The notes: generated by a model from the letters alone, not told the origin. DNA of 64,000 nucleotides from Candidatus Levyibacteriota bacterium (GCA_016199085.1 JACQHJ010000009.1:41667-105666), one strand, 5' to 3'. Numbered from the stretch's first letter, positions 35,494-59,249 are shown. Numbers and translations: made by a program.

Positions 35494-36320
35494 TTTAAGC
35501 TTAACCTCCTTATCGCCTCATCAGCCTCTTCTTGCGTAGGTGATTTATATTGAGACGATATTTTATTTACATAAATAGGAACTCCACCCAATCCTTTAAT
35601 TGTATGAGCAATAATAACCGTTGGTTTATTTTTCTTTATAGAAATTTTTTTAAATGCAGTAATCAATTCATTAAAGTTGTGCCCATCTACCTCAACTACC
35701 TCCCAACCAAAACTTCCCCATTTTTTTGAAAATGGTTCTAGGTTCAAAACATCCTTTGTATGCCCAAATCCTTGAAGCTTATTATAATCAACTATTGCAA
35801 CAAGGTTATCAAGCTTATGATGCCCAGCAAATAATATTGCTTCCCAAGTTGATCCCTCGTCACATTCACCATCTGAAATAATACAGAAAATTCTATGTTT
35901 CTTACTGTCTATTTTGCCTGCATATGCCATGCCCATTGCCATTGATAAGCCATGGCCTAAAGAACCCGCCGAGACTTCCACTCCTGAAACACAATGTCTA
36001 GTAGAATGCCCAGGAAGCTTACCGTTATTACTTTCGTATCCTTCTAAAAATTTTTTATCGAAAAAGCCACGCTCTGCCAATACAGCGTATAGCGCTTTTG
36101 CGTCATGGGCTTTACTAAAAACTAATCTGTCACGTTCCTTGCCATAGGGGTTTTGCGGGTTAATATTCATTATCTCAAAATAGAGAGAAACTAAAATCTC
36201 AACACAAGAAAGTGCACCGCCAGTATGGGCACTTTTGGCTCTCAGGCTCATTTCGATGATGTCTTTTCTAATTTTTTTAGCTTGATTTTTAAGAAAATCT
36301 ATTCTCTTTGTACTAAGCAT
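35490..36320 (-). CDS. Transketolase, N-terminal (TPP-binding) subunit
   Basis: 276 aa; AHTGGALSCVEIL...GSLGHGLSMAMGMAYA...GDGECDEGSTWEAILFAGHHKLDNL (TPP-binding GDG...E...N-type region); ATGA overlap with the C-terminal subunit gene. Confidence 0.8.
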   Translation of the reverse strand: MLSTKRIDFLKNQAKKIRKDIIEMSLRAKSAHTGGALSCVEILVSLYFEIMNINPQNPYGKERDRLVFSKAHDAKALYAVLAERGFFDKKFLEGYESNNGKLPGHSTRHCVSGVEVSAGSLGHGLSMAMGMAYAGKIDSKKHRIFCIISDGECDEGSTWEAILFAGHHKLDNLVAIVDYNKLQGFGHTKDVLNLEPFSKKWGSFGWEVVEVDGHNFNELITAFKKISIKKNKPTVIIAHTIKGLGGVPIYVNKISSQYKSPTQEEADEAIRRLSLK

Positions 36321-36371: not shown

Positions 36372-38705
36372 TTAGATGGGAAAATATAATTCAATCATAT
36401 CATCTTTACTTGCATCAATTTTTCTGTAATGATCGGATAAAATCTTTTCGATCTTCTTAGACCAAATCTCATACTCTCCCACATGAAACCTTCTACCAGT
36501 AAAGACTTTATAGCTTTTATTCGTTTCTAAGAAATTGTATATTTTTTTAACATCACTTTTTAAAAAAAGTTCCATAAGCCCAGGTGTATCAAGAACTGAA
36601 ATTGTTTTTGATTCCTCATAATAAACACTCGGAAACGTAGCTAGAATGAATATTTTTTCTCCTTTTTTTGTATGATTTTTAATAAATTTAATGTCTTCCG
36701 ATATCATCGATTGTTTTTGTTTCCCCGACAACTCGCCTATTATAGAGTTAACCGCTTTAATGTTTCCTATGTATATGCGATCAAAGTTCTCGAACCAATA
36801 GACGGAATATGAAGAAATAAAGAAATATAAAAGTAAAAAAAGAATTATTTTATGATAGATTCTTATTCCATTTTTTTTAACTCCACTCCAAAGTTCGTCT
36901 GTAAAAATTATTACTAAAATAACTGCAGAATAAATTGGCCCCCATAAGTCTACATCTGTTCCTCTCCCTTGGAAACGAGAAAACGCGCTGATTCCCAAAA
37001 CAGATAGCAAAAAAATAACCGTAGACCTATATTCATTTTCTTTCTTTATCAAATTAATCAGGGAGTATAAAATTCCTATCAGATAGATCAAAATCACCAG
37101 ATTCCACGGATGAATAAGCTTAAGGGGAGTCATTGTAAGACCAAGGAAATAATAAAATCTTTGATACTCTAAAATGAGTCTAAAATCAGGAAAGCTTCCA
37201 TATTGATTTAAAATATACAAACCATATATCATAAATACAAAAAATAAAATACATAATCCTCTTACTAATTGAAGAACAATATTTTTTAAAACCATCTTTA
37301 GGTTTTTATTATTATGGTTAAGAAACTCTAAATAAAATAATGACAACATCCATGTTAAAAAAACTACTATTCCTGTTTCTACGTTCCATAAAATTGCAAC
37401 TGAATACAGTACAAAAGAAAAATAGTATAGAATTTTATTTTTGCTCTGAAAATAAAATGAAGACAAAAATATAAGCAAAAATGGGAAAAATATCCTAAGA
37501 GGGAAAAATTGAAAATAAGGATTAATCGGAGTTAATGGAAAAAAACGTCCTCCTGGCATTATATAAAATACAAAGAAAAAGGAAATACCCAATAAGCAGA
37601 TAAATTTATCTCTAACAAACCTTCTAAGAAAGAGTAAGATAATAAAAATCGATATACCATATAACAAAGTCATTATAAAAGTAAAATTAAAAATACTTAA
37701 TCCTATTGCAGTAAAAATAGGAACTAAAAAATGAGGATATAAACCATAAAGATTAACAAAGTTATTAACAAGAAGAGCCTTGCCAGAAAAAACTTGAGAA
37801 ACAGAATAGAAAATTGTTTCTAAATCATGAGCTTTTTCTAAATTATTGGGTAATAAGTATTGACTTAGACCAAAAACCCTAGGTAAAAAAACAGATATCA
37901 CCACTAAAAAAATCAATGAAACAATCAAAAAGGTTAATGCTTTGTTGATATATTTAAATTTAGATTCATATTTGTTTTTTAAAAAAAGCAGTAAAACAAA
38001 TAGTAGGAAAACGAAAATATAATTAATAGGCTGTCTATAGAAATAATTATTTACTACATAATAAAAGTTAACGCTTTTTAGGTCGAAAAAAGTCAAAAAA
38101 AATAACAAGGAGCTACTAAGGATAACAGAAAATGAATAAATTATTTTTATAGATTTAACATATTTAACTACAACTTTTCTAAAAAAAGAGAAGGACATAA
38201 ACAATAATAGAGGGAATAAAAAAATTCCACTCAAATATTGAAATCTTTCTACAGGTTCTGGGAAAAATAGACTCTTATCTCGAACTGATATTTGAGTAGC
38301 AAATTCTATTATTTTTTCTATATCCGGTGTATATATTTTCGCAATCAAAAATACTATAAGCAGGATTATTCCTATCGAAAAGATAATACTATATACAGCA
38401 GCAATATAATCTTCCTTTTCTGATATAAATACTTTATTTACTCTGGAATTCTCACCAACAGATTCTTTTTTCTTAGTTTTACCTGCCTCCAAACGCAATT
38501 TTGAGAATATTGTCATAATAAACTGATTCTTTATTTTTTTATTGGCTATATTTTGGAATTTAAACAACTTTATGCCTTTGATAAATTGTGGGAATTTAAC
38601 AAAATTGAAACGTGTCAGTTTTAAAAAAAATAAAAATATTAAACTGAGAAGATATAAATTTTTACCTTTAATTAACATTGTGTTTTGTTTTTTATAGTAT
38701 AGCAA
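36372..38705 (-). CDS. Large polytopic membrane protein (about 15 TM) with C-terminal soluble domain; putative glycan-assembly enzyme
   Basis: 777-aa ORF; the true start may be the internal Met at about 38516 (MTIFSKLRLE...); no motif recognised. Confidence 0.4.
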   Translation of the reverse strand: MLYYKKQNTMLIKGKNLYLLSLIFLFFLKLTRFNFVKFPQFIKGIKLFKFQNIANKKIKNQFIMTIFSKLRLEAGKTKKKESVGENSRVNKVFISEKEDYIAAVYSIIFSIGIILLIVFLIAKIYTPDIEKIIEFATQISVRDKSLFFPEPVERFQYLSGIFLFPLLLFMSFSFFRKVVVKYVKSIKIIYSFSVILSSSLLFFLTFFDLKSVNFYYVVNNYFYRQPINYIFVFLLFVLLLFLKNKYESKFKYINKALTFLIVSLIFLVVISVFLPRVFGLSQYLLPNNLEKAHDLETIFYSVSQVFSGKALLVNNFVNLYGLYPHFLVPIFTAIGLSIFNFTFIMTLLYGISIFIILLFLRRFVRDKFICLLGISFFFVFYIMPGGRFFPLTPINPYFQFFPLRIFFPFLLIFLSSFYFQSKNKILYYFSFVLYSVAILWNVETGIVVFLTWMLSLFYLEFLNHNNKNLKMVLKNIVLQLVRGLCILFFVFMIYGLYILNQYGSFPDFRLILEYQRFYYFLGLTMTPLKLIHPWNLVILIYLIGILYSLINLIKKENEYRSTVIFLLSVLGISAFSRFQGRGTDVDLWGPIYSAVILVIIFTDELWSGVKKNGIRIYHKIILFLLLYFFISSYSVYWFENFDRIYIGNIKAVNSIIGELSGKQKQSMISEDIKFIKNHTKKGEKIFILATFPSVYYEESKTISVLDTPGLMELFLKSDVKKIYNFLETNKSYKVFTGRRFHVGEYEIWSKKIEKILSDHYRKIDASKDDMIELYFPI

Positions 38706-41583: not shown

Positions 41584-42312
41584 ATGAGTCATGATCTGGG
41601 TATGCCCGGGAATTACGAGTATTTATCTCTTAATAAAGGAATTTCTATACAACGACAATGGAATAAAAATAGACTCCTATTATTAAAAAAAATAAATTTC
41701 ATAACAAAAAATGATATTGTGCTTGATGCCGGATGCGGGTCAGGTAATGTTGTTTTGGAATTTTCAAAATTAGCAAAAAGAATTGACGGATGGGATATTA
41801 ATAAAAACTCAATTTCCTTTTTAAGGAAAAAAATAAAAGAGAACCAAATAAGAAACGCAAATACTGCCGTTAGAAATTTGCTTAAAGTGAAGGGGAAACC
41901 CCATTTTTCAAAAATCATTTTAACCGAAGTTATCGAACATTTTTCACATGAAGATTACAAAAAAATGCTATTAAATCTTAGGTATCTTCTTTTACCAAAA
42001 GGAAGAATTTTTATAACAACTCCAAATGATAAAAGTATTTGGCCAATTCTTGAATTTATGTTAAATATTTTCCAAAAAAACATACAAAGAGTACCAACTT
42101 TGGATGATAGACATCTGGGACACTTCGATAAAAAAACGCTCGAGACTATAGTTGAAGAGGCTGGTTTTAAAATCATACATTCTGGGACCATGAATTCTTT
42201 CTCTCCTTTTTTATTTTTTCTTTCGGAAAAGAAACGAGACAAAATTAGCTACTGGGAAAGCAAAAGCATTAAATTCGGCCCGCTTTTGTTTCTGATCGCG
42301 GAGAAAAAATGA
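41584..42312 (+). CDS. Class I SAM-dependent methyltransferase
   Basis: 242 aa; VLDAGCGSGNVVLEF (motif I) ... ILTEVIEHF (motif II region). Confidence 0.75.
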   Translation: MSHDLGMPGNYEYLSLNKGISIQRQWNKNRLLLLKKINFITKNDIVLDAGCGSGNVVLEFSKLAKRIDGWDINKNSISFLRKKIKENQIRNANTAVRNLLKVKGKPHFSKIILTEVIEHFSHEDYKKMLLNLRYLLLPKGRIFITTPNDKSIWPILEFMLNIFQKNIQRVPTLDDRHLGHFDKKTLETIVEEAGFKIIHSGTMNSFSPFLFFLSEKKRDKISYWESKSIKFGPLLFLIAEKK

Positions 42313-44151
42313 ATTTTGTAACATATTTTCTATCCCAGCTTTTATTAAAAAGTAAAAGTGAATAAGGACGAATATATTCATAAATCGCGGGTCAAAAAGG
42401 GTCATCCCTCGTGGGTCTATAGACGTAAAGATCCAAAGCCCCTTCAATAATAAAGCAAGCGTTGAGATATAACAGTAAAATCTCGCCTTTGAATTCTCTC
42501 TTGTCTCGACCCATAACAAAAGAATTATTGGGAGAGAATAATATAATCTATAGGTGAATGAAGACTGAGGGATAAGATTAATAACGGCATCTGCCAGAAT
42601 AAAAAGTAAAATAACCAAAGCTTTATTTAACCTCCAATAGTTCAAGTTATTAATTATGTCGGTTAATACTTTACGATTTTTTTTCCTAATCTTATTTAAT
42701 GTATCTATAATAAAATCTTTGGTTTTGCGAAAAATACTTATAAAAGGAATAATAAATACCAAGATAAACATTGCCTTAGAGATGGCTGAAATAATAACAA
42801 CATCTCTATATACCACCCTATCATCCAAAACTGCGCATGTATGTTTATATACACAGCTTGTTAATAAACTTGCAGTTGCTTCAAATGAGTGGTTTATACT
42901 TAAATATCTAGGTTCATTAAACAAATTTGCTGCAAATTTCGCCCACATTTGAGTTTGATTGATCGTATCAGCAATTGTAATATTTAATCCAAAAAGGTGA
43001 GGAGAATAGTTAAATCCTAAAAAAGATACAACAAAAGAAACAAATGTCAAAAGAGCATATTCTGAACTAAATATAGCAATTAAGGCAAAAGGGGCCAAGA
43101 ATAGTTTAGCATTTACTAAAAACCCCATCATAAAACCTATTAGTATTGTATAGGTGAATAAAGCAAGGGAAGGACGTGTTGTTTTTCTACGTGAAACTAT
43201 CATTAATAATAAGAATCCAACCAAAAGAGAAAAGATAATGTCCATATTAACTCTTTCCAGTCCAAAACTTCCCGGAATCCCAAGTAAAAAAATAATAAAT
43301 ACCATGAGCAAAATACTTTTTACGCGTTCTTTTTTTTTATAAGCTAAAAGAAATATAAAAATAATGTATCCGGCTATTGTTGTAACAATTAACATTTGAG
43401 AAATAAGTTGCTCACAAGAAATTAAAGGCGTAGTTTGTGATAGCGAGCATATTCCAAGCTGGGGAGCAAAAATAAGAAATGGGGAAAAGAAAAAATATAT
43501 TGCTGGACCATAACTTATTTGAAGATCAAAATAAGGATTTAGTCCATGAATCATGTATTCGGTTGGAAAAAATACAGGTACCAAGAAATCCTGGCCAACG
43601 CGTACATGGAAAAATTTTTCAGGCAGAATTAAAGCACCCCCAGGATCTGAGTAAGTGATTGAAAATCTTGTAAGAACTACTATAAGCAATAGAACTATAA
43701 ATATAAATATTTGATCTTTGTTTATAAAACTCACTGATTTGTTCCACAAACTAATAAGCCTTTTATGTATTAAGCTTCTGTATACAGTTATTGACACTTT
43801 TACTAATTTGGTATCATAGACAAACAGAATTAATTTTTTGAAAGATTCAGTAAACAATTTAATGACGATTAAAATTTTTTTAAATCCTTGCTTGTTAACT
43901 AATTTTTGAGGAAAATCATTAATCGTTAAGCTCCTTAAACCACCACTCTTTATCTTTTTATATATAAAAAATACAGTTCTATATATTCTAGGAAAAGTTT
44001 TTATTAAAAATAATGATGATGTAAGGATCAGAAGAAGTATAAATGAAATAATCATCATAATTCCCAAAAGAAATAAATTCGGGTTATAAATACCATTATC
44101 GTAAAAGTTTTTTACCAATTGAGGAATATTAGCTAAAGATAAATACAACAT
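42211..44151 (-). CDS. Polytopic membrane protein, paralog A (GT-C-like candidate)
   Basis: 646 aa; many TM helices; C-terminal 90 aa align to paralog B (FTYRLYYSLPIILLLWVETRENSKARFYCY / FNYRLYYSLPIVLILLTETQNQTKAKFYCY); its 3' end overlaps the convergent methyltransferase gene by 102 nt. Confidence 0.5.
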   Translation of the reverse strand: MLYLSLANIPQLVKNFYDNGIYNPNLFLLGIMMIISFILLLILTSSLFLIKTFPRIYRTVFFIYKKIKSGGLRSLTINDFPQKLVNKQGFKKILIVIKLFTESFKKLILFVYDTKLVKVSITVYRSLIHKRLISLWNKSVSFINKDQIFIFIVLLLIVVLTRFSITYSDPGGALILPEKFFHVRVGQDFLVPVFFPTEYMIHGLNPYFDLQISYGPAIYFFFSPFLIFAPQLGICSLSQTTPLISCEQLISQMLIVTTIAGYIIFIFLLAYKKKERVKSILLMVFIIFLLGIPGSFGLERVNMDIIFSLLVGFLLLMIVSRRKTTRPSLALFTYTILIGFMMGFLVNAKLFLAPFALIAIFSSEYALLTFVSFVVSFLGFNYSPHLFGLNITIADTINQTQMWAKFAANLFNEPRYLSINHSFEATASLLTSCVYKHTCAVLDDRVVYRDVVIISAISKAMFILVFIIPFISIFRKTKDFIIDTLNKIRKKNRKVLTDIINNLNYWRLNKALVILLFILADAVINLIPQSSFTYRLYYSLPIILLLWVETRENSKARFYCYISTLALLLKGLWIFTSIDPRGMTLFDPRFMNIFVLIHFYFLIKAGIENMLQNSFFLRDQKQKRAEFNAFAFPVANFVSFLFRKKK

Positions 44152-44198: not shown

Positions 44199-45584
44199 TC
44201 AAGAATTTTGTACACGATATTTAACAATGGAGCTTGAGGTATGACTTCTCAAAAGCAGGTAACTTGACTTAATTAAAAAAATAAAATGAAAGATTATAAA
44301 AATGTTCATTAGGCGTGCATCTATTATCCCTTTTATAGAAGGGGACAAGTTAACTATCCATAATCCACCTAAAACAAGAAAAATCATGGAAAGATAGCAA
44401 TAAAACTTTGCCTTAGTTTGATTTTGAGTCTCTGTTAATAAAATCAAGACAATAGGGAGAGAGTAATATAATCGATAGTTAAAAGCGATTTCTGGAACAA
44501 GATTTATAAAAGCAGTTATAAAAGTTAATAAAAAAATCAAAGAATATTTGTTTGTTTTTAATTTCAATAAATATCGCTTATAAAGAATAGGGCTTTTTAA
44601 TAGACTTATGAGTTTGACTAAATTCTTTTTTTTAAAAAAATTTCTAGAAAAGAATGCAATAACAAAAGTTAGTAAAACTATAATTAAAGTTAATAAATTA
44701 TTTGGGTATGCTTCACAATTTTGAGTTTTAAGACAATCTGTAAAATAAGACGCAAGAGCAGCGGGAGAATGGTTGTATGCTGGGCTAAAATTAACAGTAA
44801 CTCTTTCATTCCATAAATAAACCCTGTTTAGAAAAGTTAAAATACCAGTAGGTGACCCGAATATATTTGGTAAATACGTAATAATTATAAAAGATCCCAA
44901 AAAAGAAAAAAATTTAAAAATAATATTTTTTGAGAATAAAATAAAAACTACAGAAAAAGGGAAAAGAAAGATTTTGGCATTGGTAATCGCACCTAATAAA
45001 ATTCCCATAAAAATAGAATAAAGTTTTCCATATTTATCCAATAATTTTTTTTCATTAAATTTAAGCAGAATTATAAAACCTAAAGCCAAAGAAAGGAAAA
45101 TGTCAACATTACCCATATAAAAACCAAGGATTCCGGGTATTGAAAAAAAGAAAGTCAAAATAAAAAGTAAGGCGATTTTTTTTATTTCGGAAGACTGCTT
45201 TTTAAATAATATTTTGAAAAAAAATAAATATGACAAAAATAGAGGAAGCAGAAGTATTGAGTAAATAGTAATATTATTCCCCAGCTTTAAAAGAAGGAAC
45301 GGAGATATAATTAGGGGGAATAAATGGCCACATGCAGAGTTAACCCAACCTAATTGGTTCATTACCTCTCCTCTAACCATAAACATACTTCTTACATATA
45401 CGCATGTGTTAAAATCATTAGCAAAAACAAGGCCTAAGTTTTTAGGTACGGAAACTGACTGAGGAGAAAAAATAGATGAAACAAACGGATTTGAAATTAG
45501 AGTAAGCAAAAACAAAGCCAAAATAATTATGAAAGTCCTATGTTTAATCGCAAATATTGTTTTTTTTATTAAACTGTTATACAT
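44199..45584 (-). CDS. Polytopic membrane protein, paralog B
   Basis: 461 aa; shares the C-terminal module and the VNMDIIFSLLVGF / GNVDIFLSLALGF segment with 42211..44151. Confidence 0.5.
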   Translation of the reverse strand: MYNSLIKKTIFAIKHRTFIIILALFLLTLISNPFVSSIFSPQSVSVPKNLGLVFANDFNTCVYVRSMFMVRGEVMNQLGWVNSACGHLFPLIISPFLLLKLGNNITIYSILLLPLFLSYLFFFKILFKKQSSEIKKIALLFILTFFFSIPGILGFYMGNVDIFLSLALGFIILLKFNEKKLLDKYGKLYSIFMGILLGAITNAKIFLFPFSVVFILFSKNIIFKFFSFLGSFIIITYLPNIFGSPTGILTFLNRVYLWNERVTVNFSPAYNHSPAALASYFTDCLKTQNCEAYPNNLLTLIIVLLTFVIAFFSRNFFKKKNLVKLISLLKSPILYKRYLLKLKTNKYSLIFLLTFITAFINLVPEIAFNYRLYYSLPIVLILLTETQNQTKAKFYCYLSMIFLVLGGLWIVNLSPSIKGIIDARLMNIFIIFHFIFLIKSSYLLLRSHTSSSIVKYRVQNS

Positions 45585-46831: not shown

Positions 46832-47587
46832 ATGAATAAAATAGGTTTTAAAGAATCGAGAATATCTGAAAAACATTATTTTGAATGGAGAAAAAACCGC
46901 GCACAATCCGCTGTGAATCGAATAAGCGGAAATTATGAGTTAAAAAATAAGGTTACCTTAGACATTGGTTGTGGTTATGGCGCGCTTAGCTCTATCCTAC
47001 TCTCTAAAGGAGCAAAGGTTTATGCTACGGAAACAGACAAAAGTAAATTAGACTCAGCGGAGAAATTAATTAAAGGCAACAAAAAAAATATTAAGTATTT
47101 ACACGTAAAAAATGAAATATTACCTTTTAAAGATAAATTCTTCGAGGTTATTTTTTTATTCGATGTTATTGAACATGTAAAAAAACCCGAGATAATGATT
47201 GAGGAATGTGAACGAATACTAAAACCAGAAGGACTACTTTATGTTGAATTTACACCTTATTATTCTATAACCGGTCACCATTTATATGACTACACCAAAT
47301 TACCGATCCACGCACTACCTAAGAGTTTGATTAAAAAAATTGTATTTTCAAAAAAAGCTAAAAGCTTTATGACGCAAGAATATTACTGGGAACAATTCGA
47401 ATCGCTAAATAAGCTTAGAATTGAGAAGTTTCAAAAAATGGTAGAGAAGGATTTTATTAAAGTAAATGAAAGGTTCATAATAAAATATCCCGAACTTTTC
47501 GAAATTAATTTGGGATTTATAAATTATTTCGGTTTTTTCAAAGATTATCTTACAATGAGCTACGAAGGACTATTTAAAAAAACATGA
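46832..47587 (+). CDS. Class I SAM-dependent methyltransferase
   Basis: 251 aa; LDIGCGYGALSSIL ... VIFLFDVIEHV. Confidence 0.75.
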   Translation: MNKIGFKESRISEKHYFEWRKNRAQSAVNRISGNYELKNKVTLDIGCGYGALSSILLSKGAKVYATETDKSKLDSAEKLIKGNKKNIKYLHVKNEILPFKDKFFEVIFLFDVIEHVKKPEIMIEECERILKPEGLLYVEFTPYYSITGHHLYDYTKLPIHALPKSLIKKIVFSKKAKSFMTQEYYWEQFESLNKLRIEKFQKMVEKDFIKVNERFIIKYPELFEINLGFINYFGFFKDYLTMSYEGLFKKT

Positions 47588-48212: not shown

Positions 48213-49013
48213 CTATTTTATCCTTTTCCTCAACATCTCTATTCTATTATCATCTTCGATATTGATAGCGGAATAATAATTTTTTTTATTTTGGAGCCAA
48301 AGCAGTTCAAACATATTAGCTTTAATAATTCCTCTCTCTACCTTTTTGAAATTACTAGGCACGTTGAATACTATTTTTCTGGTCTCAAAACGGTCTAGAA
48401 GTTTTTTAGATACAAGTTTTTTAATAAATGGAATTGCTTCAACCGCAATACCCCCACCCATAGTAGTCCTTAAACCCTTTTTCTTTGCCAAAGTAAACAT
48501 TGACTGTGCAATTTCATACAATTGGTCACAATTAATGTCATCCCTCCCCAGTCCCAACGATCCTGACATATCTACTCTTCCCAACGTAACAGTATCAATG
48601 AGGCGTATCAACTTAACGCTTAATATTTCTTTGAGATTTTGAAATCCTTGGTATGTTTCAATATTTACTCCAAAATGTATTTCTTTTTTTAAATCCTCCG
48701 GAAAATGTTTTTTAATTGCCTCCAAATATTTTGTCATTGCATATGGACTTTCAATCATAGGAGCAATAAGACCCGTCACCCCAATATGCTGTGCCTCAAA
48801 CATATCTGTTATTGCTTCTGCGCCACCTATTTTTATGACTAATCCTAATCCTGCTCGGTCTGCAACTTCTTTTAAGCGCATCAACTCATTCATCCTTACC
48901 GCTTCGGTTTCAAACTCAGCTTTTAATTCCACTACTTTATGGTTTTCTCTGAGGTCAATAAGAAGTTTTACCATTTTATTTTCTAACGTATTCACAGTTT
49001 TATTATACACCAA
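48213..49013 (-). CDS. HpcH/HpaI aldolase / citrate lyase beta (CitE)-like TIM-barrel protein
   Basis: 266 aa; GLIAPMIESPYAM resembles the G-x-x-x-P-K-[IV]-E-S loop of the CitE/HpcH family and ...NIETYQGFQNLKEIL the following I-E-T-x-x-G motif; the catalytic Lys position is Met, so assignment is tentative. Confidence 0.4.
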   Translation of the reverse strand: MVYNKTVNTLENKMVKLLIDLRENHKVVELKAEFETEAVRMNELMRLKEVADRAGLGLVIKIGGAEAITDMFEAQHIGVTGLIAPMIESPYAMTKYLEAIKKHFPEDLKKEIHFGVNIETYQGFQNLKEILSVKLIRLIDTVTLGRVDMSGSLGLGRDDINCDQLYEIAQSMFTLAKKKGLRTTMGGGIAVEAIPFIKKLVSKKLLDRFETRKIVFNVPSNFKKVERGIIKANMFELLWLQNKKNYYSAINIEDDNRIEMLRKRIK

Positions 49014-50085
49014 TTATTTTTCTCAACTCTACCAAACTCGACTCGTATTCGTCAATACCTAGATTATTAATCTTAATAAGTGAAAAGTTTTTTTGCGGAA
49101 GGACGAGCACTAAGTCATTACCAATCCTTTTTTTATCTTTTTTCATATTTTCTAATATTAAGTCTTTGTCAAAATATCTTTTTTTAATATTGACTACATC
49201 TCTGGGAATATTGGGAACTAGCAAATGTTTATTTAAATCATCAAAAACTTTTTTATCAATTAATCCTCTTTTAAGAGAAACTACGTTTGCAAATATAATA
49301 CCAATTAAAATAGCCACTCCATGGGGAATCCTAAATGATGATGCAGGCTCAAGCGCATGTCCAAATTCATGTCCATAATTTAAAAGATTTCTTCTTCCCG
49401 TGTCAAACTCGTCTCCTTCCATATAGCTTAGTTTGATCTTCATGCCTTCTTCAATTATATTAAGTATTTCCTGTCTATTTTTATTGTTTTTTAACTTTTC
49501 TATTTTTTTTAATGTATTATCCAAATCCGAAATGGCATTTCCCTTCATTAAGTAAAATTTAATAATTTCTCCTACTCCACTGAAATAGTTTAATTTAGGA
49601 AGTGTTTTTAAAAAATCCACATTAATAATAATTTTTGATGGGGGATAGAAAGTACCTAATACGTTTTTATATGATTTGAAATTAAGAGAAGTCTTAAGAC
49701 CTATTGCGCTATCTGCCATCGCCAATAACGTGGTTGGGACATAAATCCAATTAATCCCTCTATATAAAGTAGAGGAAACAAATCCAACAACATCTTGGCT
49801 TATTCCTCCCCCAAAAGAAATAATAGTCAAATTTTTTTTTGCCGTTTGCTCTAGCAGTTTTTCATATACCTTCATTACTGTTTTTATAGTTTTGTTTTGT
49901 TCACCCAGCTTTACAATTATTAACTTATCTTTAGGAAATTTATTAAAAATACTTTTTTTGTAAAAAGCGTATACATTTGATCCTACAATAACGATATAGT
50001 GTTCTATCTGGAGAAATTCGTTTATAAAATTAAAATCTTTTGCAAATATAACTTCAAAATCCTTAATTTTTGACTTAATCTTCAT
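49003..50085 (-). CDS. 3-dehydroquinate synthase-like sugar-phosphate cyclase (DHQS / DOIS / sedoheptulose-7-P cyclase family)
   Basis: 360 aa; GGGISQDVVGFVSSTLYRGINWIYVPTTLLAMADSAIGLKT and HEFGHALE match the DHQS nucleotide-binding and metal-binding motifs. Confidence 0.75.
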   Translation of the reverse strand: MKIKSKIKDFEVIFAKDFNFINEFLQIEHYIVIVGSNVYAFYKKSIFNKFPKDKLIIVKLGEQNKTIKTVMKVYEKLLEQTAKKNLTIISFGGGISQDVVGFVSSTLYRGINWIYVPTTLLAMADSAIGLKTSLNFKSYKNVLGTFYPPSKIIINVDFLKTLPKLNYFSGVGEIIKFYLMKGNAISDLDNTLKKIEKLKNNKNRQEILNIIEEGMKIKLSYMEGDEFDTGRRNLLNYGHEFGHALEPASSFRIPHGVAILIGIIFANVVSLKRGLIDKKVFDDLNKHLLVPNIPRDVVNIKKRYFDKDLILENMKKDKKRIGNDLVLVLPQKNFSLIKINNLGIDEYESSLVELRKIIGV

Positions 50086-50087
50086 AT

Positions 50088-50753
50088 TTATTTACAAATA
50101 AAGCCTCCGTCAATTACGATGTTTGCTCCCGTAATATAGGTATTCTCTTCGGCAATGAGAAAAGCCACTAGATTTGCAATCTCCTCTGGCTCTGCTAGTC
50201 TTCCCATGGGAATATCTGAGGCTATGGCTGCTATTTTTTCAGGAGGATTTACTTTAATCAAATCTGTGTTCGTAAACCCAGGAGAAACAGAATTTACAAG
50301 AATATTATAGGGAGCAAGTTCTAGGGCCAAAGATTGAGTTACTCCGTTTATGCCATGTTTTGTTGCGGAATATAAAACTTGTTTTCCACGGGCAATCACC
50401 CCAAAAATAGAACTTATATTAACGATCCTTCCCCATTTATCCTTTTTCATGCTTCCAACAAATCCTCTAATTAATTTTATTGGGGCGATAAGATTTACTT
50501 GAATAGTCTCATTTATATTTTCATCAGACAGTTCATCAATCCACTGAGGATGGTTTATTCCCGCATTGTTAATAATAATATTAATTTTTTCTTTTTTGTA
50601 CTTTTTAATAAAATTATCAATAGAGTTGTCGTTTGATAAGTTAAGTTCTTCCCTATCTGGAGAAATAATTTTATATTTTTTTTCCAGCTTATTTTTAATT
50701 GCTTTTCCGATTCCCCTTGAAGAACCTGTTAACAAAATAATCTTTTTCATCAT
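50088..50753 (-). CDS. Short-chain dehydrogenase/reductase (SDR)
   Basis: 221 aa; TGSSRGIGKAI (TGxxxGIG), NNAG, and YSATKHGINGV (YxxxK). Confidence 0.8.
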   Translation of the reverse strand: MMKKIILLTGSSRGIGKAIKNKLEKKYKIISPDREELNLSNDNSIDNFIKKYKKEKINIIINNAGINHPQWIDELSDENINETIQVNLIAPIKLIRGFVGSMKKDKWGRIVNISSIFGVIARGKQVLYSATKHGINGVTQSLALELAPYNILVNSVSPGFTNTDLIKVNPPEKIAAIASDIPMGRLAEPEEIANLVAFLIAEENTYITGANIVIDGGFICK

Positions 50754-51620
50754 TTAAGCAATAAGCACCCCCCAATCAGCGCAAAATTTTTCCACCCCTT
50801 TTTTTGTCAACTCATTTTCCAAACGCGTCTTTCTCCAATCTTTAGGAAAATTAAGTAAGTCAATGAAGGGAATAGTTTCTAGCTCAGTTTTATAAATATA
50901 TGAGCTACCTGGAATAGGACACCCCTTTTCTGCCCACTCTGATAAAACTGAAAAAGGCGCTGTTATAATATCGCATTCAAGACTTAAAGAAGACAAAAAA
51001 TGAGGCAAATTGCGTACACTTGCCGCTAAAACCTCTACGTGGTTATTTTTATCTTTTCTATAGCTTTTTAAAATATTTGAAATTAGGCTTATTCCATTTT
51101 GCCCAACATCATCAAGTCTTCCAATAAAGGGCGATATTAAAACTGCTCCCTTACTTGCGCCCTTCGTTGCAAGAAACACGGCGGCTGCCTGCTCTTGAGT
51201 AAAACATAAAGTCATATTTATCCTCATTCCATCTTGCGCCGCTTGATGCGCTGCCACAAGACCTTCTTTTATAATTGGGAGTTTTATATGAGCATTTGGA
51301 ATCCAAGAAAACATTTCTTCTGCTTCTTTAAGCATTTGGGAAGATGTTGTTTCAAAATCTGCGTATACCTCAACTGACACGGAGCCTTGGGGAATAAGTT
51401 TTGAGATTTCTTGAATTACATCTTTGTAAAATGCATATATTTCTTTTTTTGTGAATTTCTTCCCTTTCTTAATCATCTCAACGGCTTTAGGATTTTTGGC
51501 TATTAGAGTTGGATTAGTTGTTTGTCCGTCTAGAAATCCAAGTATTTTAATTATTTTTTTAGTTTCAATAGGATCACCGCTATCGAGAAAGATTTTAGTT
51601 TTTAAATCTTTTGGTCTCAT
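50754..51620 (-). CDS. Transaldolase / fructose-6-phosphate aldolase family (short FSA/TalC type)
   Basis: 288 aa; IFLDSGDPIETKKI...GQTTNPTLIAK and catalytic-Lys segment HIKLPIIKEGL. Confidence 0.75.
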   Translation of the reverse strand: MRPKDLKTKIFLDSGDPIETKKIIKILGFLDGQTTNPTLIAKNPKAVEMIKKGKKFTKKEIYAFYKDVIQEISKLIPQGSVSVEVYADFETTSSQMLKEAEEMFSWIPNAHIKLPIIKEGLVAAHQAAQDGMRINMTLCFTQEQAAAVFLATKGASKGAVLISPFIGRLDDVGQNGISLISNILKSYRKDKNNHVEVLAASVRNLPHFLSSLSLECDIITAPFSVLSEWAEKGCPIPGSSYIYKTELETIPFIDLLNFPKDWRKTRLENELTKKGVEKFCADWGVLIA

Positions 51621-54332: not shown

Positions 54333-55286
54333 TCATACTACCGACTTATACCATTTTAAAACATCTTCTAAAGAGCTATCTAAATCATATTTATTTCCCC
54401 ATCCCATTTTTTTTATTTTTCTATCATTTAAATGCTGATATGGTATTTCGTTTTTTGCACTATTAAGGATTTTGAAATCTATTTTTGTATTTAAAATCTT
54501 TTCACATTTTTTTAATAGTTGCAAAACGGAGAGAGTATCATTTGAAGAGAAATTATAAGCTTCTCCTACTGTTTTTTTAATATTTTTAAGAAGAAAAATA
54601 TATCCCTCAACTACATCCTTCACATATAAATAGTCTCTCACATAGGTTCCATCACTTCTTAGAAGTAAGGTTTTTTTATTTATAACCGCATCACAAATAT
54701 CCGGTATTATTCTTCCTAAATGAAAATCTCCTTCTCCATATACGTTTCCAAACCGTGTAATAACTACAGGAAGACTAAAAGATTTGTAATAAGTATAAGA
54801 TATTAAATCTGCGGCTGATTTTGAAACGTCATAAGGATGGTCACCTCTTAGGGGAGACGTTTCATCGTAAGCCTTAGTGGTTTTTCCGTAAGCTTTGTCA
54901 CTAGATGCAACAATTACTCCCTTAATATTTTTTATCTGTCTTGCAGCATCGAGAACGTTTACCGTACCCATAATATTTGTTTCAAAAGTAGCATGTGGAT
55001 TTAGAAACGCATTATCTACAATAGGCTCTGCCGCAAGATGAAAAACAAAACTGGGATTATAAAAATTAAATACATCAAATAGTAAATCTCTTTTCCTAAT
55101 ATCAACAAGTCTAAGGATTGTCTTTGAATTTAAACCTTGGCTTGCATAAATAGAATTCCTATTAACTTCTATGTCTAGGACTATCACATTTTTTGCACCC
55201 AGATCAAGCAAGCCCTTAACCAAATTACTTCCGATAAAGCCTGCCCCTCCTGTTACTATAATTACCTCTTTATCTAATCCTTCCAT
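54333..55286 (-). CDS. rfbG: CDP-glucose 4,6-dehydratase-like (RfbG/DdhB)
   Basis: ORF 54333..55313; TNIMGTVNVLDAARQIKNIKGVIVASSDKAYGK and GDHPYDVSKSAADLI align to RfbG TNVMGTVHLLETVKQVGNIKAVVNITSDKCYDN / GYDPYSNSKGCAELV; VTGGAGFIGSNL Rossmann motif; start probably the internal Met at 55286. Confidence 0.7.
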   Translation of the reverse strand: MEGLDKEVIIVTGGAGFIGSNLVKGLLDLGAKNVIVLDIEVNRNSIYASQGLNSKTILRLVDIRKRDLLFDVFNFYNPSFVFHLAAEPIVDNAFLNPHATFETNIMGTVNVLDAARQIKNIKGVIVASSDKAYGKTTKAYDETSPLRGDHPYDVSKSAADLISYTYYKSFSLPVVITRFGNVYGEGDFHLGRIIPDICDAVINKKTLLLRSDGTYVRDYLYVKDVVEGYIFLLKNIKKTVGEAYNFSSNDTLSVLQLLKKCEKILNTKIDFKILNSAKNEIPYQHLNDRKIKKMGWGNKYDLDSSLEDVLKWYKSVV

Positions 55287-56059
55287 ACTTTCCACCTTGG
55301 ATCCTCTTTCCAAATTTTGTTCAAATCACTGACATCGGCATAAGTATCCATACAGTGCCAAAAACCATCATGAGAATAAACCGATAATTGCTTTTTAGAA
55401 ACCAGCCTTTTTAAAGCCTCATGCTCAAATTCTGCAGGATTTATATATTTAAAAAACTCTCTTTTAAAAACCATAAATCCCCCATTAGTTCTTTCTTTTA
55501 AAATAGGTTTTTCTATGAAGCTTTCCGCAATGAGTTTTTGGTTGATTTTTAAAAGTCCGTATTTACTTCGGGGATGGACTCCGGTGATCGTTCCTATTGT
55601 CCCTTGTCTTTTATGAAAGTTTACAAGCTTACTAATATCAATGTCTGCAACACCATCTCCATAAGTTACCATAAAATATTTATCTGTTTTTGGAATAAAG
55701 TTTTTAACCCTCAAGATCCTTTCGCCGGGTAGAGTTTCTTCTCCTGTATCTACAAATGTAATTTTAAAATTATCATTTTTATTTTCATTCTTTTTGCCTT
55801 TATGAATTAACGTTTTACCTGTTTTTGTAGAAATGGAGAAATTATTTGAGTAGTGTTTTTGGTTTAAAAAATATTGTTTTATCTGATCACCTTTGTAACC
55901 AAGAGCAATAATGAAGTCATTAAATCCGTAATGTGCATATATTTTCATTATATGCCACAATATTGGCATGTCTCCAATTTGAACCATGGGCTTTGGTTTA
56001 AACTCCGTTTCTTCTTTAAGCCTATAACCTAAACCTCCACATAGAATAATTGTCTTCAT
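55274..56059 (-). CDS. rfbF: Glucose-1-phosphate cytidylyltransferase (RfbF/DdhA)
   Basis: 261 aa; [57 protein letters not shown] is nearly collinear with Salmonella RfbF [57 protein letters not shown]; also [10 protein letters not shown] and GFWHCMDT (RfbF YGDGVADLDI / GFWQPMDT). Confidence 0.85.
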   Translation of the reverse strand: [261 protein letters not shown]

Positions 56060-57093
56060 AGGTATTTACTAAATTTTAACTTTAGCACGGCAAAACTAGT
56101 AAATCTGACGTAGTATATCAAAAATAGCAAACACATAAAAGGATGGAGAAACCATGCAGCGTCTCTTACTTTTAAAAATCCTCTTATGCTTAAAAATAAA
56201 GGCTGGATAAATGTAACTGTATAAAAAATATATTTTGATAAATTCACTATGTCTTTTGGGGAATTAAAATCAAAAACTGCGTATCTTCTATGATCTAAGT
56301 ACTTTGACAATGAATATCTCTTAACATATAAAACTCTTCTTCTAACAAGATCAAAAATTCCATTTCCTATATCATGCTCAATACTTGTCGTTTTTACTAC
56401 AGCAAATCTTTTGAAACCTAATTTTAATAGATCTACATAAATATCTATATGCACATAAGCTTCGGGAGAAATATCTGCCTTTAGCAAAATCTTTCTTCTT
56501 GTCAAAAATCCATTATCTCCTACTGTTGGAAGATTATTTTTATTGAATTCAACTACATCGTAGTTTTTCTCCCTTTTAATTATTTTCCCTTTTAAGTACT
56601 TATCTGTTAACCAGGTTTCCCTATCTGCTTTATTTAGATATAGGGCAACAGGATCGCTAATCCCAAAACAAGCACAATATCTATCAAGCAGCTTCATGTT
56701 TTTATTTATCCCGTAATGCAGAGTAAAGGTTGAGATTATTTTTCTATCGTCAATGAAAGGTTGAATTAACTGCCGTAAAGAATTTTTATCCGATAAGACA
56801 TTATCTGACTCAAGCCAAAGAACAATGTCGTTTTTTGCCTTTTTTACGGCAAATACTCTTCTTACCTCACTTTGGTCTCTCAAGTTTTTTTTAACTATCA
56901 ACTTGCATCCATAATTTTTTAAGTAATTAATTTTGTTTTTTTCTGAACCCCCATCGACTATAATGTGCTCAATCAACTGTTTTGGATAATCTTGATTTTT
57001 AATTGATTCTAAAACTTTCCTGAAAACTTTGGGATTGGGATTTAGAGTAATAGTTAAAATTGATATGCTGGGAAGTGAAAAGCTCTTCTTCAT
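56056..57093 (-). CDS. Glycosyltransferase family 2
   Basis: 345 aa; ISILTITLNPN...HIIVDGGSEK...LWLESDNVL (GT2 DGGS/DXD-type motifs). Confidence 0.7.
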   Translation of the reverse strand: MKKSFSLPSISILTITLNPNPKVFRKVLESIKNQDYPKQLIEHIIVDGGSEKNKINYLKNYGCKLIVKKNLRDQSEVRRVFAVKKAKNDIVLWLESDNVLSDKNSLRQLIQPFIDDRKIISTFTLHYGINKNMKLLDRYCACFGISDPVALYLNKADRETWLTDKYLKGKIIKREKNYDVVEFNKNNLPTVGDNGFLTRRKILLKADISPEAYVHIDIYVDLLKLGFKRFAVVKTTSIEHDIGNGIFDLVRRRVLYVKRYSLSKYLDHRRYAVFDFNSPKDIVNLSKYIFYTVTFIQPLFLSIRGFLKVRDAAWFLHPFMCLLFLIYYVRFTSFAVLKLKFSKYL

Positions 57094-57207: not shown

Positions 57208-58407
57208 ATGAAAGGATTAAGAGTTTCATACGCACAAGCCGTCCACGATGACGCTGAGACAAAAAAAATTCTTTCTGTACTAAAGGAACATAGAACCATA
57301 ATCGGAAAAGAAACAGAAGAGTTCGAGAAAAGAGTCGCAACGCATTTTGGAAAAAAATATGCAGTTATGGTAAATTCCGGCTCTTCTGCAAATTTAATTG
57401 CCGTCAGATTATTAAATTTACCTGCCCATTCAGAAGTGATTACACCGCTACTTACTTTTTCAACTACTATTGCTCCCCTTTTACAAAATGGCCTTGTCCC
57501 CGTCTTTGCCGATGTAGAAGAGGGAAAATACATAATTAATTTAGACGAAATAGAAAAACTTATTTCAAAAAAAACAAAAGCCCTTATGATTCCTCTTCTA
57601 ATAGGAAACGTTCCAGATATGAAAAGACTTAGACGGATTGCCGATAAGCATAAATTGTTTATTATTGAAGACTCATGCGATACCCTGGGAGCAACCTTTG
57701 ATGGAAAACCAACCGGCTACTATACAGATATTTCGACAACAAGCTTTTATGGATCACACATTATAACAGCAGGGGGCGGGGGAGGCATGGTAATGGTAAA
57801 CAGCACTAGCTGGAGAGATAAGGCAAAGGTTTTGCGAGGATGGGGAAGAAGTTCTTCTATTTTTAGCGAGTCTGAAAGTATAGATAAAAGGTTTAAGGCA
57901 AAAATAGGAAATATTCAATACGATGCAAAGTTTATTTTTGATGAAATAGCCTATAATTTCATGCCGATGGAAATTGGTTCTGCTTTTGGCAATGCACAAC
58001 TTGATAAATTACCCAAATTTAAGGCAACGAGGGAGAAGAATTTTAAGCATCTTTATGAATTTTTCAAAAAGTACGAAAGGTTTTTTATTCTCCCTAACCA
58101 GGATAAAAAAGTAAGAACTCAATGGCTGGCCTTTCCCCTAACAATTAAGGAAAACAGTCCTTTTACAAGACTTGAATTAGTAAAATATTTGGAACTAAAC
58201 AATATACAAACTCGCCCAATATTTACGGGCAACATTTTGATGCAACCCGGATTTAAAAACATCCCTCATAGAAAAAATGGTAAATATACTTATACAAATC
58301 AAGTAATGAAGCAAAGTCTTCTAATTGGATGTCATCATGGATTAAAAAAGGAACATCTAGATAAACTAAAAAATGTTTTTAGTAAATTATTAAATAAATA
58401 TTCTTAA
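57208..58407 (+). CDS. DegT/DnrJ/EryC1-family PLP/PMP enzyme of the 3-dehydrase type (RfbH/E1- and ColD-like): His replaces the Schiff-base Lys, no Fe-S cysteine motif
   Basis: 399 aa; VMVNSGSSANLIAVRLL, NGLVPVFADVEEGKYIIN, RLRRIADKHKLFIIEDSCDTLGATFDGK, TTSFYGSHIITAGGGGG and TRPIFTGNILMQPGF align to Salmonella RfbH and E. coli ColD; codon 184 is CAC (His, nt 57757-57759) where aminotransferases have Lys; the E1 CYCAPGCDNTC [2Fe-2S] motif is absent (only 2 Cys in the protein). Confidence 0.75.
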   Translation: MKGLRVSYAQAVHDDAETKKILSVLKEHRTIIGKETEEFEKRVATHFGKKYAVMVNSGSSANLIAVRLLNLPAHSEVITPLLTFSTTIAPLLQNGLVPVFADVEEGKYIINLDEIEKLISKKTKALMIPLLIGNVPDMKRLRRIADKHKLFIIEDSCDTLGATFDGKPTGYYTDISTTSFYGSHIITAGGGGGMVMVNSTSWRDKAKVLRGWGRSSSIFSESESIDKRFKAKIGNIQYDAKFIFDEIAYNFMPMEIGSAFGNAQLDKLPKFKATREKNFKHLYEFFKKYERFFILPNQDKKVRTQWLAFPLTIKENSPFTRLELVKYLELNNIQTRPIFTGNILMQPGFKNIPHRKNGKYTYTNQVMKQSLLIGCHHGLKKEHLDKLKNVFSKLLNKYS

Positions 58408-59249
58408 GCTCTCTTTTGGGCAAGAATTGCTACGCCAAGACCTTTTTTATTATTTATCATTGTATCTACTTGGGATAATACAATAAGGAACGGATAAAAA
58501 AGTCCTGCAAGAATAAAACTTTTTTCAAGCAGAATATGGTTAATCTCCCATGCGAGTTTTCCAAAAAATCCAAATGTATGCCTTACCACTATTATTTTAA
58601 ATTTAAAATCTACGAGTTCTTTTATTAACTGCCTTACCACAAAGCCTTCACGAACGTGATCTTCGTGATGCCACTTTTTAAGCTGGCTAAATATCCTTTC
58701 TTGATTAGGTTGGGGAGTATGAATATAAAGATATCCTTTATTAGCCAATTGTCCATAAAAGTTTTTTAAAACCTTTCTGTAATCCTTTATGTGTTCCAAA
58801 ACATCAATATTAACTATTAAATCATATTTTTGTTTATCGTATTCCCTGGAAATATCTCTATAATAAAAATCTATTTCGCTAAATCCTAATTCCTCGGCAA
58901 ATTTCTTAGAAAAATTAATTTTGTTCTTATCGATCTCCTCCCCTACTATTCCTGCCTTAGGGAACATCTTGCAAAGCCAAAATGAATAGGTTCCGATTCC
59001 GCTCCCTGCATCAAGAACATTTTTAACCCTTTCCTTATTTACTTTTTCTGATATTATTTTTTTAAAATATAGGCTTCTAATTAAAAATCCAACCTCGGGA
59101 ATCCCAAATATTTGTATGTAAATTTTTTGAAGCAAAAAGATAAGGCTCTTATTGCTTGTTTTTTTTACTTTCCTACCATACTCATGCTTCATCTCTTTAA
59201 ATGAGTCAAGGAGTATCTCGGGATGTCGTGAATATTCTGATCCGATCAT
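58404..59249 (-). CDS. Class I SAM-dependent methyltransferase
   Basis: 281 aa; VLDAGSGIGTYSFWL (motif I) ... LIVNIDVLEHI. Confidence 0.7.
   Translation of the reverse strand: MIGSEYSRHPEILLDSFKEMKHEYGRKVKKTSNKSLIFLLQKIYIQIFGIPEVGFLIRSLYFKKIISEKVNKERVKNVLDAGSGIGTYSFWLCKMFPKAGIVGEEIDKNKINFSKKFAEELGFSEIDFYYRDISREYDKQKYDLIVNIDVLEHIKDYRKVLKNFYGQLANKGYLYIHTPQPNQERIFSQLKKWHHEDHVREGFVVRQLIKELVDFKFKIIVVRHTFGFFGKLAWEINHILLEKSFILAGLFYPFLIVLSQVDTMINNKKGLGVAILAQKRA

Follow-up and report, generated by a model that had tools for sequence, protein, structure and literature searches.

The window analyzed here, a 64,000-nucleotide stretch of Candidatus Levyibacteriota DNA (GCA_016199085.1, JACQHJ010000009.1:41667-105666), carries on its minus strand at 48213-51620 four open reading frames (ORFs) that are separated by a few bases at most and encode an HpcH-like protein, a protein of the 3-dehydroquinate synthase (DHQS) family, a classical short-chain dehydrogenase/reductase (SDR), and a transaldolase. 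ORFs and Pfam families agree with the four genes named in an earlier description drawn from the sequence alone, referred to below as the sequence-only reading. While that reading treated the four genes as a sub-cluster, they form the 3′ end of a nine-gene operon extending from 57093 down to 48213, to which we add the divergent gene at 57208-58407. As transcribed, the operon encodes a family 2 glycosyltransferase (GT2), a cytidylyltransferase-like protein, a 4,6-dehydratase-like protein, a thiamine diphosphate (ThDP) enzyme, and an extended SDR, followed by the transaldolase, the classical SDR, the DHQS-like protein, and the HpcH-like protein. The four genes are functionally linked. The genes directly upstream, which had been left out before, encode a predicted YerE-like ThDP enzyme, a candidate YerF-like reductase, and predicted enzymes for a 3,6-dideoxyhexose activated by cytidine diphosphate (CDP). 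The window has a low G+C content of about 30-40%. From ~10 kb up to its end at 64 kb it is taken up by a large glycan locus, which encodes glycosyltransferases, a flippase, methyltransferases, and PMT-like membrane proteins. The window was annotated by Pfam, batch by batch, and NCBIfam/TIGR models with curated cut-offs were applied to the operon proteins, with the following assignments.

48213-49013, minus strand: HpcH/HpaI-like class II (pyruvate) aldolase, 266 aa; Pfam HpcH_HpaI 36.9 bits (cut-off 25)
49003-50085, minus strand: DHQS paralog of the TIGR04425 clade, 360 aa; DHQ_synthase 125 bits and DHQS_C 98 bits
50088-50753, minus strand: classical FabG-like SDR, 221 aa; adh_short_C2 150 bits
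50754-51620, minus strand: transaldolase-type enzyme, 288 aa; TAL_FSA 168 bits
51629-52486, minus strand: extended SDR (RmlD/epimerase type), candidate YerF-like reductase; Epimerase 92.7 bits, RmlD_sub_bind 42.5 bits
52488-54317, minus strand: predicted YerE-like ThDP-dependent carboligase, 609 aa; all three TPP_enzyme domains
54333-55313, minus strand: CDP-glucose 4,6-dehydratase-like protein; TIGR02622 198 bits (cut-off 278), Pfam Epimerase and GDP_Man_Dehyd
55274-56059, minus strand: glucose-1-phosphate cytidylyltransferase-like protein; TIGR02623 266 bits (cut-off 300), match end to end
56056-57093, minus strand: GT2 glycosyltransferase, first gene of the operon; Pfam Glycos_transf_2 51 bits
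57208-58407, plus strand: E1/RfbH-like 3-dehydratase, divergent; RfbH NF011936 355 bits (cut-off 423)

By its model scores, the DHQS-family protein is assigned to a slightly divergent branch of the TIGR04425 clade from the Candidate Phyla Radiation (CPR) and not to housekeeping AroB. It reaches 378 bits with TIGR04425 (cut-off 400) and 261.6 bits with the aroB model TIGR01357 (cut-off 305), narrowly below the former cut-off and also below the latter, an equivalog cut-off. An NCBI record from Candidatus Levybacteria matches the protein with 100% identity. TIGR04425 bears the name AroB-related putative sugar phosphate phospholyase (cyclizing); a literature text search found no paper on the model or its name. 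Among relatives encoded in the same gene cassette, a second CPR member scores 340 bits with this model and non-CPR members 403-460 bits, with proteins from Flavobacterium, Geobacter, Sulfuricurvum, and Lentisphaerae passing the cut-off, while the scores of same-cassette relatives with the aroB model range from 243 to 271 bits. The window shares its SDR, ThDP enzyme, aldolase, and reductase with loci L024, L031, L032, and L048, whose proteins lie above the TIGR04425 cut-off. The paralog belongs to the same fold family as AroB and has 13 catalytic or substrate-binding residues in common with it. It differs in staying under the AroB cut-off, in falling into a separate clade, in having no shikimate neighbors in the loci examined, and in its constant association, within glycan loci, with genes for an SDR and a ThDP enzyme. 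Pfam annotation reveals no other shikimate-pathway (aro) gene in the 64 kb window, nor is there one among the families common to related loci. The observation of the sequence-only reading that a DHQS-family gene sits in a glycan locus with no other shikimate genes in view is confirmed. Plasmid tblastn with the DHQS-like protein retrieved ordinary AroB alone, at identities of ≤35%.

All 13 DHQS active-site residues are identical to those of E. coli AroB in the alignment and invariant in 55 of 55 family members. These sites, which we take to be R130, D146, K152, N162, E194, K197, K250, R264, N268, H271, H275, H287, and K356 in A. nidulans 1DQS numbering, include three metal ligands, phosphate binders, and carboxylate binders. 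Lys218 and Arg232 of the window protein correspond to the DHQS carboxylate binders Lys250 and Arg264 and are invariant in the family. Among the distinguishing residues are Leu267/Asp281 in EEVS and Glu254/Ala268 in DDGS (PMC10666671), pairs that we equate with Lys250/Arg264 by inference from their common 14-residue spacing. Further, phmmer against solved structures yields 155 bits for DHQS, 115 for DOIS, 100 for EEVS, and 84 for DDGS. The paralog thus resembles EEVS (ValA), DDGS (MysA), and DOIS in superfamily and in non-shikimate DHQS chemistry, but departs from EEVS and DDGS in its Lys/Arg fingerprint, where these carry Leu/Asp or Glu/Ala, and in sequence scores that are lower than to DHQS. 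Because the carboxylate and phosphate binders are kept and the scores favor DHQS, the substrate should bear a carboxylate and a phosphate, like 3-deoxy-heptulosonate 7-phosphate (DAHP), and should not be sedoheptulose-7-phosphate or glucose-6-phosphate. Inspection of the substrate-specifying residues, a check put forward by the sequence-only reading, consequently turns against the EEVS/DDGS/DOIS-type cyclase that it had favored: all 13 are as in DHQS, and neither the EEVS nor the DDGS pair is present. We propose that the paralog has a DAHP-like keto acid as its substrate and functions as an NAD+- and metal-dependent phosphate eliminase.

The genetic setting was compared across three metagenomic neighborhoods and 53 genome loci by tblastn and clustering of all ORFs. 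Many related loci are incomplete contigs, so the following family counts are lower bounds.

DHQS-like protein: 58 loci
Classical SDR: 52 loci
HpcH-like aldolase: 46 loci
ThDP enzyme: 43 loci
Extended SDR: 34 loci
GT2 of ~314 aa: 33 loci
Glucose-1-phosphate cytidylyltransferase: 29 loci
RfbH-like protein: 27 loci
Transaldolase: 6 loci

In all 53 genome loci, which come from many phyla, the DHQS-like gene lies within this cassette. Its conserved core consists of a YerF-like reductase, a YerE-like ThDP carboligase, an aldolase, an SDR, and the DHQS-like protein, usually with a glucose-1-phosphate cytidylyltransferase, a CDP-glucose 4,6-dehydratase, and an E1-like 3-dehydratase nearby. The hosts include CPR bacteria, Bacteroidota, Geobacteraceae, Sulfuricurvum, Chlorobiaceae, Lentisphaerae, Anaerolineales, and Actinobacteria. 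Non-CPR loci mostly have the gene order reductase, ThDP enzyme, aldolase, SDR, DHQS-like protein, and GT2. The classical SDR gene directly precedes the DHQS-like gene in 46 of the 58 loci, and the extended SDR gene, where present, usually adjoins the ThDP gene. Hence, the conserved unit does not coincide with the four genes singled out before: it includes the ThDP enzyme and the reductase, while the transaldolase is optional (6 of ~58 loci).

The ThDP enzyme is, by its closest structural homologs, a predicted YerE-like carboligase. It matches 8rph with 455 bits and 5ahk with 267 bits, which we take to be JanthE, a YerE-like enzyme, and PpYerE, respectively; acetolactate synthases reach at most 265 bits, and every NCBIfam acetolactate-synthase cut-off is missed. 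The extended SDR yields weak PDB matches to dTDP-4-dehydrorhamnose reductases and is proposed as the candidate YerF-like reductase of the branch C1′ keto group. The three CDP-sugar enzymes are predicted to make CDP-4-keto-3,6-dideoxyhexose, with a putative specificity for nucleotide and sugar. The best PDB match of the E1/RfbH-like protein is E1 (3bcx, 266 bits), and its His aligns with the active-site His of E1 (‘SFYGSH’). In contrast to known E1, it does not have the cysteines of the Cys-rich segment: those of the Yersinia E1 segment CYCAPGCDNTC, presumably iron-sulfur cluster ligands, are replaced by Ser and other residues, and the protein contains two Cys in total. It may therefore be an enzyme that works like ColD, without a reductase partner. 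Unlike most relatives, the window does not carry the ~314 aa GT2 encoded behind the cassette of 33 other loci; its own GT2 (56056-57093) is not an orthologue of that protein and is a candidate transferase for the branched sugar.

The HpcH-like protein was placed by structure, as a PDB sequence search gave chance matches alone. Its AlphaFold2 model (pLDDT 88.9) has the class II pyruvate aldolases 3qz6, HpaI, HpcH, and YfaU as top Foldseek matches (TM ~0.55). Alignment with E. coli YfaU by hhalign (92.9% probability) places E119 and D148 on the metal ligands E153 and D179. This alignment begins at residue 75; by eye, the invariant Lys61 appears to lie at the strand end where HpaI has its catalytic Arg70. 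We propose that the protein forms a DAHP-like 4-hydroxy-2-keto acid from pyruvate and erythrose-4-phosphate. In some loci the aldolase slot is occupied by other enzymes, namely a non-orthologous NeuB-like phosphoenolpyruvate (PEP)-condensing enzyme in the Anaerolineales locus L036 (8246-9334) and a 531 aa HMGL/DmpG-like pyruvate aldolase in Geobacteraceae loci (L032, 7588-9183; L039, 11077-12705; L042, 4249-5844). Since these replacements are condensing enzymes too, the task of the slot would be the synthesis of a 3-deoxy-2-ulosonic acid. As to gene starts, the ORFs at 48213-49013 and 54333-55313 have TTG starts and overlap the upstream gene in the ORF list, and their true starts probably lie a few codons downstream; the NCBI version of the HpcH-like protein has 260 aa, compared with 266 aa here.

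The classical SDR next to the DHQS paralog is proposed as a putative ketoreductase for the 6-keto group left by phosphate elimination. The fourth gene had been read as a fructose-6-phosphate aldolase (FSA)-type transaldolase, an assignment that did not survive comparison with its best PDB match, Thermoplasma transaldolase 3s0c. The Glu of ‘VSVEV’, the Schiff-base Lys of ‘IKLP’, and the Phe of ‘SPFIGR’ all align. Phe or Tyr in the ‘SPF/Y’ motif separates transaldolase from fructose-6-phosphate aldolase, and the protein is accordingly classed by its motifs as the transaldolase type. It occurs in 6 of ~58 related loci, all from the CPR and at varying positions inside the cassette, and we regard it as an optional accessory gene and proposed supplier of erythrose-4-phosphate.

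Among characterized systems, the window comes closest to the lipooligosaccharide (LOS) locus of Mycobacterium marinum. In its RefSeq annotation, a DHQS-family protein is annotated as MMAR_2329, followed by an aldolase/citrate lyase (MMAR_2331), a ThDP-binding protein (MMAR_2332), a GT2 (MMAR_2333), a glucose-1-phosphate cytidylyltransferase (MMAR_2334), RfbH (MMAR_2335), and CDP-glucose 4,6-dehydratase (MMAR_2336) (PMC12395582). The same annotated set from MMAR_2329 to MMAR_2336 is present in the window: DHQS family, aldolase, ThDP enzyme, GT2, and three CDP-sugar genes. It differs from the caryophyllose locus in its CPR (Levybacteria) origin and in the transaldolase inside the operon. Mutants of MMAR_2331, MMAR_2332, and MMAR_2333, i.e., of aldolase, ThDP enzyme, and GT2, lose caryophyllose (PMC9306805), which is 3,6-dideoxy-4-C-(D-altro-1,3,4,5-tetrahydroxyhexyl)-D-xylo-hexose. 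Steitz et al. proposed and partly demonstrated a unifying scheme for acyl-branched sugars, in which CDP-4-keto-3,6-dideoxyglucose receives, through ligation by a YerE-like enzyme, the 4-hydroxy-2-keto acid that an aldolase has formed; reduction by a YerF-like enzyme then completes the branch (PMC9306805). The window resembles the YerE/YerF and ErwE/ErwF/ErwI/ErwJ pathways in having a predicted ThDP carboligase for CDP-4-keto-3,6-dideoxyglucose, a proposed pyruvate aldolase for the donor, and a candidate finishing reductase. In contrast, the yersiniose A and erwiniose clusters contain neither a DHQS-like gene nor a classical SDR. Their donors are pyruvate (yersiniose) and 4-hydroxy-2-oxopentanoate (erwiniose), whereas the window holds two extra tailoring enzymes for which a phosphorylated precursor is proposed. 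We place the locus, as a CPR representative, among the known YerE-type clusters for branched sugars, with the caryophyllose genes of M. marinum as its nearest counterpart.

Our starting observations are the family assignments, the conserved active site, the synteny across phyla, and the resemblance to the annotated locus of M. marinum. With a probability of roughly 55%, the operon builds a caryophyllose-like long-branched deoxysugar for a cell-surface glycan, the four genes forming its precursor-supply half and the DHQS paralog tailoring the side-chain precursor. The product would be a CDP-3,6-dideoxyhexose with a long polyhydroxyalkyl chain on C4. We hold with more reserve, at somewhat less than even odds, that the TIGR04425 paralogs and their adjacent SDR are not cyclases but deoxygenate C7 of a DAHP-like keto acid, the pyruvate aldolase product from erythrose-4-phosphate, to give the methyl terminus of caryophyllose-type side chains.

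Substrates, step order, and the failure of the paralog to complete cyclization are the inferred parts of the following scheme. In the acceptor arm, cytidylyltransferase, 4,6-dehydratase, and E1-like 3-dehydratase would yield CDP-4-keto-3,6-dideoxyhexose. In the donor arm, the HpcH-like class II aldolase would condense pyruvate with erythrose-4-phosphate, the latter provided by the transaldolase, to DAHP or an epimer. The paralog would then carry out the first half of DHQS chemistry, i.e., NAD+-dependent oxidation at C5, β-elimination of the phosphate, and re-reduction, leaving C7 as a methyl group beside a C6 ketone, provided that the enol is protonated instead of undergoing aldol closure. Reduction at C6 by the classical SDR would give 4,5,6-trihydroxy-2-oxoheptanoate, which must be the donor if the side chain is to become the 1,3,4,5-tetrahydroxyhexyl group of caryophyllose. 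Finally, the YerE-like enzyme would decarboxylate the keto acid and join the remainder to the acceptor at C4, the extended SDR (YerF-like) would reduce the C1′ ketone, and the GT2 would move the sugar to the glycan. Aldolase, paralog, and classical SDR, the conserved trio, would thereby each have one required step. The chemistry matches, as DAHP or an epimer without its C7 oxygen would yield the caryophyllose side chain after decarboxylative ligation and reduction. In the sugar name D-erythro-D-gulo-decose, moreover, the D-erythro centers are the last two hydroxylated side-chain carbons, consistent with an origin from D-erythrose-4-phosphate. A DAHP-like substrate would account for the DAHP-binding residues kept in the paralog, a nucleotide sugar and a free acid for the two reductase types (extended and classical SDR, respectively), and the demand for erythrose-4-phosphate and other precursors for the accessory genes of CPR loci.

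Several points weigh against this proposal. Full conservation of the DHQS active site is equally expected of a true cyclizing DHQS. According to Bartlett and Knowles, the enol-pyranose intermediate of DHQS reportedly cyclizes spontaneously, and a linear product therefore requires that the enol be intercepted. The cytidylyltransferase-, 4,6-dehydratase-, and RfbH-like enzymes all score below their NCBIfam equivalog cut-offs. To our knowledge, there is no glycan structure for any CPR bacterium. The link between MMAR_2329 and the window protein consists of annotation and gene context, MMAR_2330 carries no annotation in the locus data used, and a homologue search seeded with an actinobacterial member gave no mycobacterial protein among the matches listed. 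The published scheme for caryophyllose employs pyruvate and a free C4 aldehyde, with no DHQS-like enzyme (PMC9306805). As far as our search shows, the role of the DHQS-family gene in caryophyllose loci is not discussed in the literature, and none of the papers listed contains both ‘caryophyllose’ and ‘dehydroquinate’.

The most serious competitor, although improbable in our judgment, is that the paralog is a true cyclase that converts DAHP or an epimer, the aldolase product, to a dehydroquinate-type carbocycle, which the SDR would turn into a quinate-like cyclitol carboxylate. This unit would become a glycan substituent, or its ketone would act as acceptor for the ThDP enzyme. ThDP enzyme and reductase would then make an ordinary yersiniose-type branch from pyruvate. 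With the 13 DHQS residues invariant, the sequence holds nothing against full DHQS chemistry; the name given by the NCBI curators denotes a putative cyclizing phospholyase, and YerE-type enzymes take cyclic ketones in vitro. However, dehydroquinate is not a 2-keto acid and hence no ThDP donor, so that this reading gives no reason why paralog and ThDP enzyme are so tightly co-conserved. Neither a conserved activating enzyme nor an acyltransferase for a cyclitol carboxylate is found in the cassette, and in M. marinum the product of the same set of genes is caryophyllose, with no cyclitol in the LOS structures described. Less probable still is a route to the same product in another order, in which paralog and SDR would convert erythrose-4-phosphate to a 4-deoxy-tetrose (2,3-dihydroxybutanal) by oxidation at C2, phosphate elimination, re-reduction, and ketoreduction before the aldolase adds pyruvate. 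This order agrees with the published caryophyllose proposal, in which pyruvate is joined to a C4 aldehyde (PMC9306805), and explains the same gene set and the genes for erythrose-4-phosphate supply, but the invariant Lys218/Arg232 and the contacts to the DAHP pyranose would be pointless for a four-carbon aldehyde phosphate.

Two further explanations fare far worse. DHQS-family genes outside shikimate operons often encode EEVS/DDGS/DOIS-type cyclases, and the sequence-only reading had envisaged such an enzyme making a C7 cyclitol for the glycan from sedoheptulose-7-phosphate supplied by transaldolase and transketolase. The adjacent transaldolase is in place, and the nearby split transketolase was found as described; its absence from ~52 of the 58 related loci speaks against a role of the transaldolase in feeding a cyclase. 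Together with the DHQS-like Lys/Arg fingerprint, found in place of Leu/Asp or Glu/Ala, and the phmmer scores given above, this makes such a cyclase very unlikely, and we rejected it on its active-site residues. Marginally further down ranks the idea that an ordinary AroB and a pentose-phosphate transaldolase lie in the glycan locus by chance. The DHQS-like active site, the compactness of CPR genomes, and a view restricted here to 64 kb would fit such housekeeping co-location. The paralog, however, scores higher on TIGR04425 than on aroB, the window has no other shikimate gene, and the clade recurs within this glycan cassette in organisms of many phyla, Geobacter and Flavobacterium among them; we discarded this option because of the model scores and the synteny between phyla. 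A caryose-type carbocycle built on the nucleotide sugar was also considered and rejected, as the carboxylate binders point to a keto acid in free form as the substrate. Of the two products suggested by the sequence-only reading, the cyclitol is thus disfavored by the carboxylate binders and the rarity of the transaldolase, while an unusual higher-carbon sugar is most likely.

If the caryophyllose-like assignment is true, a small-genome CPR bacterium devotes some ten genes to a single exotic, branched C12 sugar of its surface, a type known elsewhere from pathogens of plants and animals. If, in addition, the TIGR04425 paralogs deoxygenate a DAHP-like keto acid as proposed, the sugar-phosphate-cyclase superfamily would gain a new reaction outcome, and a DAHP-like compound would be made from pyruvate by way of surface-glycan loci that are widely distributed, from the CPR to mycobacteria. 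The proposal offers a concrete function, open to experiment, for a family of DHQS paralogs that occurs widely and is publicly annotated as ‘3-dehydroquinate synthase’ or ‘putative cyclising phospholyase’, and it would fill a gap in the published caryophyllose scheme, the source of the 6′-deoxy four-carbon end of the side chain. The pair of DHQS paralog and SDR is the element worth testing. Shikimate-pathway capacity should not be deduced from such genes in metagenome-assembled genomes (MAGs).

Transaldolase, split transketolase, and PEP carboxylase are recurrent accessory genes of the CPR loci, which we read as precursor suppliers. The split transketolase of the window (34570-36320, minus strand) has Transketolase_N on one ORF and Transket_pyr plus Transketolase_C on the other, and adjoins a GT2 gene. 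By tblastn, matches to transketolase halves lie <10 kb from the cassette in L017, L019, L020, L053, and L058, with both halves in L019, L053, and L058. The enzyme is possibly an accessory source of erythrose-4-phosphate or plain housekeeping. An archaeal-type PEP carboxylase (PEPcase_2, 428 bits), of which the window has none, is encoded in or beside the cassette of five CPR loci (L001, 7582-9084; L002, 2747-4249; L008, 7551-9071; L019, 14131-15633; L058, 3996-5519) and might feed the aldolase oxaloacetate as a pyruvate-enolate equivalent.

Two loci, L003 (1792-7366) and L018, contain two ThDP genes, one beside a DmpFG-like pair (acetaldehyde dehydrogenase and DmpG-like aldolase) and one beside the DHQS/SDR module, consistent with each ThDP enzyme having a keto-acid supply module of its own. 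As the second ThDP module resembles the erwiniose module, a single locus of this kind may be responsible for two distinct branched sugars. In L032 (3671-4849), L013, L023, and L059, the cassette comes with a glycosyltransferase of the GT87 family, and the M. marinum locus has its GT87 as MMAR_2327. The DHQS-like genes of L009, L010, L012, L014, L015, L023, and L027-L029 are 50-91% identical to the CPR gene and labelled ‘uncultured Gammaproteobacteria’ or ‘Methanosarcinales’; these public MAG contigs are probably mis-binned or mislabelled CPR contigs.

Within the window, a promoter/terminator scan returned signal at chance level. Three genes for S-adenosylmethionine (SAM)-dependent methyltransferases lie around the operon, at 41584-42312 (plus strand), 46832-47587 (plus strand), and 58404-59249 (minus strand). 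A methyltransferase is also part of the cluster with which Rhodopseudomonas palustris makes a related branched sugar (PMC9306805), so the sugar of the operon may be O-methylated. Between glycosyltransferase genes, a Fic/DOC-domain protein is encoded at 22282-23256 (minus strand). Six long ORFs of the glycan locus (461-1151 aa) have no Pfam match at the threshold used (17404-20601, 27716-29731, 30085-33540, 36372-38705, 42211-44151, and 44199-45584) and may encode membrane polymerases or glycosyltransferases of unassigned family.

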